The position numbers and the translations under genes were made by a program. Positions 7,130-63,849 of a stretch of 64,000 nt of DNA are shown piece after piece. The notes beneath the pieces are model-generated. The model saw nothing but the letters and a program-made list of their open reading frames with translations. It ran no database searches and had not been told where the DNA came from. Source of the DNA: Squalus acanthias (lineage: Eukaryota). Position 1 is the first letter of the stretch; each line of letters begins with the position of its first letter. The stretch is from the NCBI GenBank assembly GCA_030390025.1, contig CM059440.1, positions 15,872,001 to 15,936,000 on the forward strand, read 5' to 3'.

Positions 7130-10100
7130 TTGGCAGGGAGAGCGGAACCACAAAATAGCAGAAATGACATAAGAGGCCAAAGAGATATAAACAGCAATAA
7201 AATTAGAAATATCCCCAAAATTGCAGGGACCAGATTGAGGAAAATAGCAAAACTAACGAAGGAGTTATTAAATTGTATGTACTTCAATGTCCATAGTGTA
7301 ACTAATAAGGTTGGTGAGCTGCAGGCACAAATTGCTACATGGAATTATGCTGTGGTTGCATTAACAGGGACATGGCTCAAGCAAGGCTAGGAATGGGTTC
7401 TTAATATTTCTGATTACCAAGTATTCAGGAATGATAGAGAAGGAAAAAGAGGAGGCGGGCATTATTGATTAAGGATGATGTTACAGTTCTAAATAGAAAG
7501 GTATACTAGATGGTTCTAGGACTGAATCTATTTGGCTTGAGTTGAGGAACAGAGGGGGAGCTGTTACATTGTTGGGAATTTTTTTAAAGAGCTCCAAACC
7601 GCGAGAAGGAGGTAGATGAACAAATTTGTTGGCAAATTTCAAAGGCGTGTATCAACAACAGAGTAGTAATATTAGGAGACATTAATTACCCCAATACAAA
7701 AGCAAAATACCGCGGATGCTGGAAATCTGATGAAGGGTCATCGACCTGAAACGCTAACTCTGTTTCTCTCTCCACAGATGCTATCTGACCTGCTGAGTAT
7801 TTCTAGCATTTTCTGTTTTTATTTAATTACCCTAATATAGACTGGGAAAAGCATAATGCTAAAGGTAGGGAAGGAGAGGAATTTCTGTATGTGTACAGGA
7901 GAACTTTCTCAATCAATATGTCTCCGTCCAACAAGGAAGGAAGCAGTGTTGGATCTGGTTTCTGGGAAATGAAGCAGGGCAAGTGTTACAGTAGGAGATC
8001 ATCTAGCTAACAGTGACCACAACATAATTTGATTTAAAGTAGTTATGGAAAGAGACCAGAAAATATCGACGGTAAAAATGCTCAACTGGGGAAGAGATAA
8101 TTTCAGTGATTTAAGAAGGGACCTAGCATAAGTAGATTGGAAAAGGTGGTTGCAGGGTAAAGCAGTACCGGAGCAATGGGGGGCATTCAGGGAAGAGATA
8201 GTTCAGGTACAAACTAGGCATATTCCTTTTGAAGGGAAAATGTAGAGCATCCAAAGGTAATGCGGCCTGGATGACAAAGGAAACAAAAGTTGAGATAAAA
8301 CAGAAAAAGGAGGCAAATGACAAATGTCAGGAGCAAGTTTCAGTTAATAACCAGTACAAGAAAAGTACAAGAGGGAATTGAAAAAGTTATTACATGAGGT
8401 ACAGAGAGTTTACAAGAAAAGATTAGCAGGCAACATTAAATTGAACCCTAAAACATTTTATAAACATATAAAATGTAAGCGGTTAGCTAGGGAAAATGTT
8501 GGGCCTATTAAGGACCCAAAGGTAAATCTTCATGAAGAGGCAGAGGGCATGGCTAATGTATTAAATGAGTACTTTGCATCTGTCTTCACAAAGGAATCGG
8601 ATGATGTGAAGGTTACACTAAAAAGGAGAGGAAAGTTATGGACAGGATAGTAATAGATAGAGAAGACGTACTAAAAATATTAGCATTACTGAAAGTTGGT
8701 AAGTCACCTGGTCCAGATGGAATGCATCCTAGGTTGCTGAAAGAAGCAAAGGTAGAAATAGCAGAGGCATTGGTCACAATCTTTCAATCCACATTGGATA
8801 TAGTAGTGCTGGAGGACTGGAGGGTTGCTAATGTTATACCAATATTCAAGAAAGGAGAAAGGGATAAACCAGGAAACTACAGGCCAGTCAGCCTAACATC
8901 GGTGATGGGGAAGTTACTGGAAACCATTATCAGGGACAAAATAAATGTTCATTTGGAAAGGCATGGATTAATCAAGGAGAGCCAGCATGGATATGTTAAA
9001 GGCAAATCAAGTCTGACTAAATTGATTGAATTCTTTGATGAGGTAACAGAGAAGGTTGATCAGGATAGTGCAGTAGATGTTGTGTATCTGGACTTTCGGA
9101 AGGCATTCGATGAAGTGCCACACAGGAGGTTTATTAAGAAGATGGGAAGCCCATAGAATTAAGGGGAAAGTGGCGGTATGGATACAAAATTGGTTCAGTG
9201 GCAGAAAGCAAAAAGTGGTGGTGGTGATTGGTTTTTCAGACTGGGAGGTGGTTTGCAGTGGTGTTCCTCGAGTCAGTTTTGGGTCCATTACTCTTCAATT
9301 TTTATGAACGACCTAGACTCGGGTGTAGGGAGCAGCATTATAAAGTTTGCAGATGATACGAAACTTGGCAAAGTAATAGATAGTGATGAGGATAGTTATA
9401 GGCTTCAGGGTGACATGGACAGGATGGTGAAATGGATAGAAGCATGGCAGATGGAGTTCAGATGGCGGAGAAGTGTGAAGTGATGCACTTTGGGAGGACT
9501 AATATGGAAAGACAGTAAACTATAAATGGCACGATTTTGAAAAGTGTAGAAGAGCAGAGAGATCTTGGTGTCCATATACACAAATCCTTAAAGGTGGGCG
9601 GGCAAGTTGATAAGGTGATTAAAATAGCATATAGGTTACTTGGGTTTATAAATAGAGGAATAGAATATAAAAGCAAAGAGATCATGCTAGAACTTCAGGC
9701 CTCAGCTGGAGTATTGTGGACAATTCTTGGCACCACACTTCAGGAAAGATGTAAAGGCCTTAGAAAAGGTGCAGAGGAGGTTTACCAGGATGTTACCAGG
9801 GATGAGGGACTTCAATTATGAAGAGAGGTTGGAAAAGTTAGGATTGTTCTCTGTAGAACACAGAAGGTTAAGAGGTGACCTAATAGAGGTTTTCAGAGAT
9901 TTTGATAGAGTAGAGAAAAACTATTCCATTTGGCAAGTGGGTCAATAACTAGAGGTCATAGATTCAGAATCATTGGCAAATGATCTAGAGGGGAGATGAG
10001 GAGAAATTTTTTCACTCGGAGTTGTCGGGATCTGGAACACTTTACCTAAAAAGGTGGTGGAAGCTGATTCCATAAATAATTTTAAAAGGGAGTTGGACGG

Positions 10101-19579: not shown

Positions 19580-20048
19580 AAGACTTCTGTCAGGACCCAC
19601 ACTGACTATTTACAGCTCTTTTGTGCTACCCCACTCCCTGCAGAACTGTTTCTCGTCGTCCTCCTCGATCTCTCTGCAACCTTTGACACAATCAATCACA
19701 TGATCCTCCTTCAACACCTCCTCCATTGTCCAACTCTGTGGGACTGCCCTCCCTTGGTTCTGCTCTTACCTATCTAATTATAGCCAAAGCATCTCTAGAA
19801 ATGGCTTCTCCCACCACCACACTATCACCTCCAGAGTCCCCCAAGGATCCATTCTTGGCCTCCTGTTCCTTATCTACATGCTGTCCCTTAGTGACATTAT
19901 CCGCAGCCATCGTGACAGCTTCCACATGTTTGCTGACACTCAGCTCTACCTCTCCACCACCTCTCTTGACCCCCTCCTTTGCCTCTGTGTTGTCAGACTG
20001 TTTGCCTGACAGTCTTGGATGAGCCCTAACTGCCTCCCAGCTAAACAC
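19580..20048 (+). mobile_element. L2-clade LINE reverse transcriptase fragment
   Basis: LVVLLDLSATFDTINHMILLQHL, then gtcccccaaggatccattcttggc (VPQGSILG) in a shifted frame. Confidence 0.85.
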
Positions 20049-27486: not shown

Positions 27487-28046
27487 GGGGGCAAAATTGG
27501 GTCGCGCCTCGAAAAAGTTGGCACCCCCGTGCCTGAAATTCACTGGTAGCGCCCCAAGAGGGAGGTGGGGCGCTACTGGAAGCGCCCCACCTCCCTCTTG
27601 GGGTGCTACGAGTGAATATCACGACGCTATGTGCCGCGGTACTGCAGGCCTTCCTCCCCTTATTCAAGGGGAGGGGCCCAGCTGGGCCACCAGGGATCAG
27701 AGTGCCAGCAAAAGAGCCTGGCACTCGAAGAGTGCCGGGCTCACGGAGCACAGCCGACATCCCGCAGGGGCTTCACAGGAGGCCGGGGGCAGGTGCTGGC
27801 AGGCGGCCAGCAACAAAAATCGCCGCCCAGCAGCACCTCTTAAATTTGCGCCGCCCTGGCTGCACGTACGCCCCCCCCTAGCATCCGGCGGTAAGTCAGG
27901 GGGCGCTACCGAAGATTGCGGCCGGGGCACTGCCCACGGTGATGACGTCATCGCCGCGGGGCGCTAGCGGTTACCGCCGCCGCTAATCGCCCGCTGAATT
28001 TTGCGGGAGGCGTTAGCGGCGCAGTGCTCGGGCGCTTTTTCCCCCC
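27487..28046. mobile_element. PIF/Harbinger-type MITE
   Basis: gggggcaaaa / tttttcccccc ends; TSD ata; related in reverse orientation to 63143-63849. Confidence 0.8.
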
Positions 28047-50679: not shown

Positions 50680-50854
50680 TAACCTAACCCACCAGGCAGG
50701 AAACTGACCAGATCATGTCCAACGCCAGTTTTACACCCCACCCGAATTTGCTCTCCATCAACTTCATTGGAGAGTAAATTGGCGCAGGGAGTAAACGCGA
50801 CTTTCGACCCGATCCGTTCAGTTTCCCACCGGGCGGGTTAGGTTAAAATTACCC
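50680..50854. mobile_element. Foldback MITE (whole-length imperfect palindrome)
   Basis: taacctaaccc..ggaaactga / tcagtttcc..gggttaggtta; inner aatttgctctcca / tggagagtaaatt. Confidence 0.75.
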
Positions 50855-50915
50855 TCAGATTGTTACCGAGAGGGTGTTAATGAACGTGCTCCAAACAATG
50901 CGTGCTATATCCAAG

Positions 50916-51118
50916 ATGTGGAGATGCCGGTGTTGGACTGGGGTGGACAAAAGTGAGAAGTCGCACAACACCAGGTTATAGTCCAACAGCTTTATTTGAA
51001 ATCACAAGCTTCGGAGCGCTGCTCCTTCGTCAGGTGAAGAAGGAGCAGCGCTCCGAAAGCTTGTGATTTCAAATAAAGCTGTTGGACTATAACCTGGTGT
51101 TGTGCGACTTCTCACTTT
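50916..51118. mobile_element. Penelope-type inverted pseudo-LTR insertion (hairpin) with hammerhead cores
   Basis: 13-bp TSD tgctatatccaag (50903-50915 and 51119-51131). Arms 50948-51028 and 51039-51120 are exact reverse complements except for a 1-nt indel. Confidence 0.85.
51001..51038 (-). ncRNA. Minimal hammerhead-ribozyme-like motif, probably defective
   Basis: UCAC-CUGACGA-A-GGAGC-AGC-GCUCC-GAA-GCUU-GUGA: stem I, core, stem II and palindromic stem III are present; one A of GAAA is missing. Confidence 0.6.
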
Positions 51119-52064
51119 TGCTATATCCAAGGTTGTTGTATCTCTAAGTGTTCTGGCAACTAGCTACTGCATTTCAAATAATTAAACAATTGTTCAGCCC
51201 TCTCTTTGCCAAACCTGTGATTTCCAAAATATTTTAACCTCTCAAAGTACATGTCAGTGTTCTGCATTTGTTCCAGGCCCAGTTGAGGTTTTGGCTTTGT
51301 GAGCTGTGTACTTTTATCACAGAGTGAATGGTACACAGACTTTGCAGCTGCAGCTTGGAGACTGTTCAGATTCAACAGAGCCTTGCCAGGTCCCTCCTCT
51401 TTATCAGCCTCAGCTTTGTAGTGTTCCCACACAAGGGTTGCCAAATAAAACTGAAGAGAGGAAAAAGAGCTTTCTCTATAGAATCCACAGGCCTGGTTTT
51501 GACTGGTCTCAGCCCCTGGCCGTTTGCCAGTACGGCAAGGGTTACAGCATTAGAGCGCTGATAGCACTGCTTGGCTCTTCCTTTCCGCACCAAGATGAGG
51601 GAGCTGGCACACGACCAATTTCAGCTTACTGAGGCTGCTGTAGCTGCCTTGAAACCTTTGGGAGAATTGTCTGTCACCCACACCACTCCTTTGGGTCAAC
51701 TTTGTTATATTTACTCTAACAGAATTGCCTTCCCCAAAGTGGAAAGGGCACCATACTTAAGAGAGTAAACCATTACCCATGCCACTAGTCTCTTTGGAAT
51801 TCAGCATCATGTATTCAGATCAAAATGTGTTGGAGACTGGGAATTGCAATTTACAGCTCAAGCATGCTTTGTGAAATGCAGTCTGAAACTGAAATGCAGA
51901 CAAAAAAACCTGTAGAAATTTCTCTGAAAAGTTTACATAATTGGCTTGTCTTACCATGTACAACGTGTACAGTTCAAACAAAGCATGCCTGCATTGTGGT
52001 TAACAATTCAATCCATGTGTGGAAGCAACGTCTTTTTTTAAATGTCCCTGCAGTTTACTTCCGT

Positions 52065-63142: not shown

Positions 63143-63849
63143 GGGGGAAAGATTGGGTTGCTTTGCCCCTCCCGTTAGCGCCCCGAAGCGCTACTGGCTA
63201 TTGCCGCGCCCCCAAGGGGGCGCTAACCTAGCACCCAGGTGCGGCGCCGCTAACGCCTCCCATGAAATTCAGCGGGAGGTTAGCAGCAGCGATAGCCGGT
63301 AGCGCTGCGCCTCCGACGATGATGCCATCACCGTGCGCAGCGCCCCGGCCACAAACTTCGCTCACACTCCCTGGCTTATCGCCGGACGCTATGTCCGACG
63401 GGGTCAGGGTGCCGAGTTTGCGGCCGGGGCGGCGCAAATTAAAGGGCAGGTGCCGGCCGGCCATTTTTTTTGGGCCACCTTCCAGCATCTGCCCCCTCTC
63501 GCCCCCTCGCCGCGATCGGTTAGCCTGCCACTCCTCTTGAGTGCTAGGCTCTTTTGCCGGCACCCCGCTCCCTAGTGGTCCAGCAGGGCCCCGGTGCGCG
63601 CTGTGCTAGGCCTTTAATGAGGGGAGGGAGACCTGTAGCACCACGGTGCTATGTGCCAATGCACGTGGCGCTGCTGCACTTAGTGCCGCGATATTCAATA
63701 GGAGCGCCCCAAGAGGGAGGGGGAGCGCTTCCAGTAGTGCCACGCCTCCTGCTTGGGGCGCTACCATTCAATTTCAGGCGCGGGAGCGCTAAAAGTAGCG
63801 CCACGGCGAAGTTAGTGCCCCGAAGGGGGCACGGCCCAATTTTTCCCCC
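63143..63849. mobile_element. PIF/Harbinger-type MITE
   Basis: TIRs gggggaaagattggg / cccaatttttccccc; flanks taa and gaa; left end matches 26263, right end matches 27487 reversed. Confidence 0.85.

Follow-up and report, generated by a model that had tools for sequence, protein, structure and literature searches.

The element described here lies within a 64-kb window, which is the whole stretch of DNA that was analysed, and its parts are listed in Table 1. Sequence comparison demonstrated that two exact copies of a 13-bp direct repeat bound the element, as an earlier note on this DNA had stated in reporting a perfect target-site duplication (TSD). The same note had described arms of 81 and 82 nt that differ by one indel, and comparison of 50948-51028 (81 nt) with 51039-51120 (82 nt) confirmed that the two arms are identical except for that single position. 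A 32-nt extension present on one arm only had been overlooked; its distal end is the likely start of reverse transcription. The inverted arm is without the CUGA and the 5' strand of stem I, while its GAAA is whole at 51055-51058. The AATAAA previously noticed on each strand is likewise present, and the two occurrences are one pLTR motif doubled through the inversion.

Table 1 Features of the hairpin insertion, in positions of the window (PLE, Penelope-like element)
Feature	Position	Strand	Remark
Target-site duplication, left copy, 13 bp	50903..50915	.	Present once at the unoccupied site of two relatives
One-sided PLE 'tail', 32 nt, stopping right before the ATG of the parent ORF	50916..50947	-	30-nt part: 33,174 exact matches
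Tail-bearing arm, pLTR leader, from -6 (counted from the C of CUGA) as far as the end of the tail	50916..51039	-
Minimal type I hammerhead, GAAA minus one A (GAA at 51012-51010)	51002..51037	-	From sequence; motif test failed
Inverted tail-less arm, starting at G8 of the core	51039..51120	+	Final two bases shared with the TSD
AATAAA of the pLTR, tail arm	50991..50996	-	Its 26-nt context: 58,998 exact matches
AATAAA of the pLTR, inverted arm; duplicate of the tail-arm motif	51072..51077	+
Target-site duplication, right copy, 13 bp	51119..51131	.

The insertion is real because its site is empty in two related species. One contig of each species joins 50902 directly to 51119, without the 203-nt insert and without one copy of the TSD, and with 12 and 11 other letters in 635. 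Since the flanks differ by only about 2% in these relatives and the closest genomic copy of the insert is 99% identical, the insertion is also recent, in agreement with the youth proposed in the earlier note. A contig bearing the same species label spans the right junction, but it contains no more than about 22 letters of the insert, too few to bridge it. An imperfect inverted repeat at 50680-50845 (78-nt arms, 74% complementary) lies 60 bp to the left of the insertion; it belongs to a repeated, MITE-like family and must be older than the hairpin insertion, because the two relatives share it. Elsewhere in the window, an 88-nt near-palindrome (89%) at 27534-27621 sits within a repeat that has a diverged copy at 63244-63792, near the window end. 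Reverse-transcriptase (RT) fragments at 8605-9153 (+) (RVT_1, E=1.5e-11) and 19704-20006 (+) (E=0.008) are likely LINE remains. Pfam scanning of 47 of the 150 frames in 0-26.9 kb gave one RT match above the cutoff, and a scan of 220 open frames of at least 55 aa in 26.7-64 kb found no host domain, a result compatible with an intronic position. Besides the one inverted pair, no further copy was found in the 64-kb window.

The parent of the insertion was sought through its repeated parts. A 30-nt part of the tail has 33,174 exact matches in the 3.7-Gb genome, and all eight parent loci fetched from a protein search, which listed many intact frames, hold a 921-codon open frame whose ATG follows directly after the tail. 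At these eight loci the parent units are arranged in tandem with a 3,138-bp repeat or as inverted pairs; L087, for example, has three pLTRs spaced 3,138 bp apart, and L086 has inverted copies. The window arm is 92-96% identical to the pLTRs flanking the 921-codon frames. Three copies (L023, L026 and L028) run upstream into the end of the ORF and belong to closer subfamilies, with arm identity of about 97%. The parent protein matches RVT_1 (E=1.4e-8) and GIY-YIG (22.6 bits, right at the cutoff score), and in parent L089 a Cx4CxxC linker stands just upstream of the VVY..YIG motif. A search of PDB sequences with the parent protein returned a single weak RT match (E=0.89). The family thus combines one ORF bearing RT plus, at its C terminus, a GIY-YIG domain, tandem or inverted pLTRs, a 32-nt one-sided tail with a 13-bp TSD, and a hammerhead motif within the pLTR, and the parent is an endonuclease-bearing (EN+) Penelope-like element. 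As CX2-5CxxC between RT and endonuclease is given as a Neptune/Nematis mark in the available text of PMC8557442, the linker suggests that the parent would be of Neptune/Nematis type. The Penelope origin put forward in the earlier note thus holds, the arm and tail being identical with the pLTR and tail of parents that carry RT plus GIY-YIG, and the copies and parent for which it had called were found in number, intact tandem parents among them. L086/L087 (C1, 223.72 Mb) form an intact head-to-head and tandem array of three full 921-codon units, which is likely an active source locus. At L026 (C10, ~132.22 Mb) a 935-codon open frame is present, and the downstream pLTR bears the same GAA deletion as the window copy.

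To characterize the copies, we used the first 100 exact tail matches, all of which fall on contig C1 within its first 9.6 Mb. An adjacent inverted arm accompanied the tail in 66 of these 100 copies, and a TSD was present in 62 of the 66, of which 46 were 12-13 bp long. The remaining copies either extended more than 250 nt into the element (17/100) or took other forms (17/100). With positions counted from the C of CUGA, an end at -13 or later is seen in 61 of the 100 tail arms, making stubs of this type the commonest form. The inverted arm never carried the tail, and in 54 of 61 scorable copies it stopped between -6 and +5 of the point where the tail starts; four copies were dropped for want of an anchor, and L109 and L110 are one locus sampled twice, of which one was dropped. 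Arm 3' ends therefore fall at two sharp positions, about 35 nt apart. The arms of one insertion were concordant at subfamily markers (56/58 at one site and 57/59 at another), while in the window subfamily, duplicate pair included, the stem II loop differed between arms in 12 of 30 hairpins as against one difference at a marker site. Shared markers together with loop differences fit separate synthesis of each arm from like templates, and later mutation at the hairpin loop is an alternative account of the latter. One-base insertions in the stem II loop of one arm relative to the other were seen in L041, L044, L049, L100, L109, L111, L134, L147, L152, L154 and L163, with the arms otherwise alike; this loop is possibly an RT error hot spot or a site of loop-specific mutation.

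The earlier note had taken the element for a non-coding mobile unit of about 200 bp in its own right. On this reading the hairpin would itself be transcribed and re-inserted in the manner of a retrozyme or SINE. Such a unit could account for the tens of thousands of similar short copies and for the occurrence of the exact asymmetric junction of the window at 93 places in the genome, and non-autonomous PLE derivatives (retrozymes) have been described (bioRxiv 10.64898/2026.07.22.740005, in the part available). The position of the tail argues strongly against it. The window and the first 30 other places sharing its junction were scored for tail side: 19 copies bear the tail on the full-core arm and 10 on the cut arm, two have none, and both subfamily marker states occur among the 31. 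A unit derived from a master copy would fix the side of the tail, so a junction with the tail on either side has not been copied as a unit. In other samples the junctions vary widely from copy to copy, and neither the shared structure nor the shared end orientation of a SINE- or MITE-like unit is seen. In addition, the 93 copies of the junction compare with 20,304 matches to the intact core, the upstream TATA is not kept in the stub, and the window holds one inverted pair where a non-LTR retrozyme has at least two head-to-tail units with complete hammerheads, a tandem array being required of retrozymes according to the available part of the same preprint. The reading as an independent mobile unit is thus largely refuted, and we regard it as highly unlikely.

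The minus strand of the window copy presents, in order, the 5' strand of stem I, CUGACGA, an extra A, stem II, and GAA in place of GAAA. This agrees with the previous description of that strand, and the proposed minimal hammerhead with a palindromic stem III is likewise supported. The plus-strand core had been described as lacking the 5' strand of stem I and as carrying GUGAAGA in place of CUGA; the absence of the stem I strand was upheld, whereas the GUGAAGA is not a mutated CUGA but the inversion junction. It consists of the reverse complement of the 5' end of the other arm, fused at 51039 to the arm that starts at G8, with one base shared between them. The plus-strand core defect is accordingly a truncation and involves no second mutation. 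Neither arm has a complete core, and neither strand of the stub passes a hammerhead motif test that recognizes all three pLTRs of parent L087 as well as copies L046, L059 and L134; no match to this motif was obtained in L089. An Rfam search returned no hammerhead match, giving only microRNA-type hairpins below their gathering scores. The earlier note had made its proposal depend on conservation of the core among copies, and the GAAA box is indeed whole in 85 of 87 tail arms and 59 of 62 inverted arms of the 100-copy sample.

Genome-wide exact counts gave 20,304 places with the intact 25-mer and 13 with the GAA-deleted form, seven of the latter on tail arms and six on tail-less arms; among the matches listed, the partner arm was intact in all nine GAA-deletion copies where it was visible. 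Loss of one A from a neighbouring, non-catalytic A-run, taken as a control, occurred 21 times against 58,998 (odds ratio 1.8, p=0.11). These counts suggest that the broken ribozyme letter would be a rare slip near the background rate, and a deletion rate near 6e-4 in a homopolymer would fit assembly error too. The missing A would have arisen in the window copy alone, through a synthesis slip, a later mutation or an assembly error; among the contig pieces listed, none spans the deletion together with the junction of this locus. The earlier note had also raised the idea that the A was lost under selection, since an intact ribozyme would cut a host transcript. That the sole difference between the arms removes a conserved core A from the only strand with a full core speaks for this idea, as does a deletion rate 1.8 times that of the control, but the excess is not significant and more than 20,000 intact cores are tolerated. 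The deleted A, moreover, sits in one of the five runs of at least three identical bases in the arm, and the predicted fold of either strand is one long duplex (-152 and -162 kcal/mol) in which the core would be paired to the other arm. In vitro, minimal hammerheads did not cleave when single and cleaved weakly as dimers (PMC4209133, in the part available), and in the Pfam scans of open frames from 26.7 to 64 kb no host exon was found, an intron being possible. We therefore consider selection very improbable indeed as the cause of the missing A, for which it is neither needed nor seen. A plain co-fold of two copies did not form the stem III dimer, the helices being too weak for this outcome to be informative. 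The stub is most likely a dead end without a working ribozyme.

An apparent strand-specific decay of the core, in which all tail-arm cores of 30 loci were altered and most inverted arms were intact, was rejected as a seeding bias. It arose because the DNA search skips common words, and unbiased samples contain intact cores as well as deletions on both arm types. Despite having CCGACGA for CUGANGA, one subfamily (8/67 cores; L040, L050, L105, L117, L127, L146 and copies related to them) has spread, suggesting that mobility may not require cleavage.

The element is most probably a head-to-head stub of an abundant autonomous PLE, the leader of which was likely copied separately from both cut strands. 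The endonuclease would make staggered nicks about 13 bp apart. Reverse transcription would be primed by one nick at the tail end, beside the ATG, and by the second some 35 nt deeper inside. The two cDNAs would run toward the 5' end of the RNA and would then be joined by microhomology repair. It is less sure that most stubs are this short because the TATA/initiator site at which the template begins lies 7 nt ahead of the hammerhead core, where the enzyme would run off. Separate priming is supported by the identity of the arm with the parent pLTR and tail, by the TSD and empty site, by the two 3' ends and by the variable junctions. Alternatively, the hairpin could have formed by fold-back, a single nucleic acid strand priming its own copying rather than synthesis starting twice. 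Self-priming on an antisense template has been proposed for palindromic PLE junctions (Arkhipova et al. 2013, PMC3846280, in the part available), and it would explain why both arms carry the same subfamily markers. Copying of a tail-less cDNA could not supply a tail, however, and under fold-back one would expect neither a tail confined to a single arm, on either side of the same junction, nor a tail-less arm with its own sharp 3' end. We consider fold-back unlikely and prefer separate priming on the two cut strands.

The layout of an inverted, 5'-truncated copy with a one-sided tail and a TSD has been published for PLEs (PMC8557442, PMC3846280, in the parts available). In its head-to-head arms, one-sided tail and TSD, the window stub resembles the inverted-pLTR insertions of Pen2a_Av of Adineta vaga and other EN+ PLEs (PMC3846280; Craig et al. 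2021, PMC8557442), and the available text of these papers also describes pLTRs with a hammerhead, a TATA box and an initiator-like motif. Insertions of the Pen2a_Av type are given a tail of 30-40 bp and a TSD of 8-10 bp, compared with a TSD of 12-13 bp in the present stubs. They further differ, as far as those descriptions go, in that the window stub has no ORF between its arms and that stubs are the commonest form here. Two RT start sites bounding the tail, to which the two fixed arm 3' ends correspond, are also reported for PAc (Poseidon) of Anolis carolinensis, the protein of which cuts and extends both strands in vitro, where the hammerhead is not needed for insertion (PMC11167929, in the part available). 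The PAc start sites lie 111-118 nt inside the ORF, whereas here the tail ends at the ATG, and the Cx4CxxC linker of the present parent, a Neptune/Nematis mark, sets it apart from PAc in the available account. The short helix I, the extra base before stem II and the palindromic 15.2-16.2 pair are shared with the minimal hammerheads that metazoan PLEs carry (Cervera and de la Pena 2014, PMC4209133). That report, in its available text, notes pairs of minimal motifs on opposite strands 100-700 bp apart and ties scattered single motifs to truncated PLEs; unlike the hammerheads it describes, neither arm of the window copy contains a complete core. Animal non-LTR retrozymes are similarly non-coding, PLE-related and equipped with a type I hammerhead, but they are described in the available sources as head-to-tail tandems with complete ribozymes (PMC7229834; bioRxiv 10.64898/2026.07.22.740005), in contrast to the single head-to-head stub of the window, which has none. 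The window element is a truncated member of an EN+ PLE family and not a retrozyme.

The earlier note had placed the inversion point at the hammerhead core, and the centre does fall near it, with 5' ends between -13 and +11 in 44 of 100 tail arms and 40 of 66 inverted arms. For tail arms, the stopping rate per base in this interval is 4-9 times that of other intervals. Pooling of 147 arm 5' ends placed 37 of them at -8 to -4, or 7.4 per nt compared with 0.5 per nt at -24 to -15, and the peak drops sharply upstream and gradually downstream. In each of the 30 copies extending 60 nt upstream, a TATA box precedes the A of a YYA initiator-like motif by 27-35 nt (mostly 30-32); this A stands at -7, or at -13 in one subfamily. 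Within a copy, a short arm tends to accompany a short one and a long arm a long one (45/6/3/11, p=4e-6). Because the arm ends cluster 4-8 nt before CUGA and about 30 nt after a conserved TATA, run-off at the 5' end of the mRNA is a plausible cause of the pile-up. TATA and Inr-like motifs have been noted in the pLTR of rotifer Pen2a (PMC3846280, available part), and Drosophila Penelope is described as having an internal, TATA-less promoter (PMC2377424, available part). Hammerhead cleavage was rejected as the cause of the centre, as the predicted cut site lies at +28/+29 yet only 10 of 147 arm ends fall at +22 to +31.

The pile-up might instead be produced by repair, if identical cDNA ends anneal only at self-complementary words and the hammerhead stems supply such words. 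Junctions do recur at palindromic words (AAGCTT in L057 and L137, AATT and TA elsewhere), and small templated-looking duplications are common at them. In 10 of 50 near-perfect hairpins of another subfamily, the arms pass -7 and are joined at a natural palindrome, which indicates that microhomology shapes the ends too. Repair would not, however, readily explain the sharp upstream edge, which fits the TATA spacing, or the single ends near it: of eight cases in which an arm stops at +27 or later, five have a partner arm that still ends at -6 to -10, and five of 17 copies without an adjacent inverted arm end at -4 to -9, small numbers in both instances. Repair as the main cause is accordingly doubtful, though of some weight, and our reading of the arm ends, in which the enzyme runs off at the mRNA 5' end and microhomology then joins the products, might equally well prove right or wrong. 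A cap-derived G before -7 was considered and rejected as a marker of the mRNA end; it was present in 89 of the first 100 matches, but a control at -4, made up in part of the same junctions in mirror image, also gave 89/100. A single extra G:C pair occurs in eight of 50 near-perfect hairpins of a subfamily with T at -8, where a templated repair insertion is possible, and a single-arm test for the cap G found no scorable case with a TSD among the 17 candidates listed. L228 (C1:80769881-80769930) is a perfect hairpin in which both arms run from -7 and are preceded by the same two non-templated bases, a candidate signature of the cap or of terminal addition. Among the paper titles and passages covered, mainly of open-access literature, none was found to state that PLE stubs end at the transcription start.

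Taken by itself, the window copy is an ordinary young Penelope stub of already-published layout. The present analysis adds a test of tail side, a matched control for the deletion, an empty site and the spacing between TATA and initiator. We tentatively propose, at a little short of an even chance, that the stubs are copies of the PLE mRNA leader made by run-off, from which its architecture can be read. If this is true, the leader would comprise a TATA box, a start 7 nt before the hammerhead and an AATAAA about 50 nt later, with two RT start sites, one at the ATG and one about 35 nt before it. Reverse transcription that starts internally, near the 5' end of the mRNA, would then yield only a stub of about 90-125 nt, and copying of a whole element would need a transcript that reads through the AATAAA into a second pLTR. 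This would account for the excess of stubs and for the persistence of PLEs as partial tandems. The two-armed stubs, in their tens of thousands, would also document naturally both two-strand priming and the errors of RT, which would be notable in the stem II loop. The stubs would also put an AATAAA on both strands, together with a long predicted duplex, into any transcript that crosses them. The family statistics bear modestly on how PLEs make their inverted ends and tails, and in a vertebrate family that has many intact parents the stubs offer testable positions for both priming sites and for the start of transcription.
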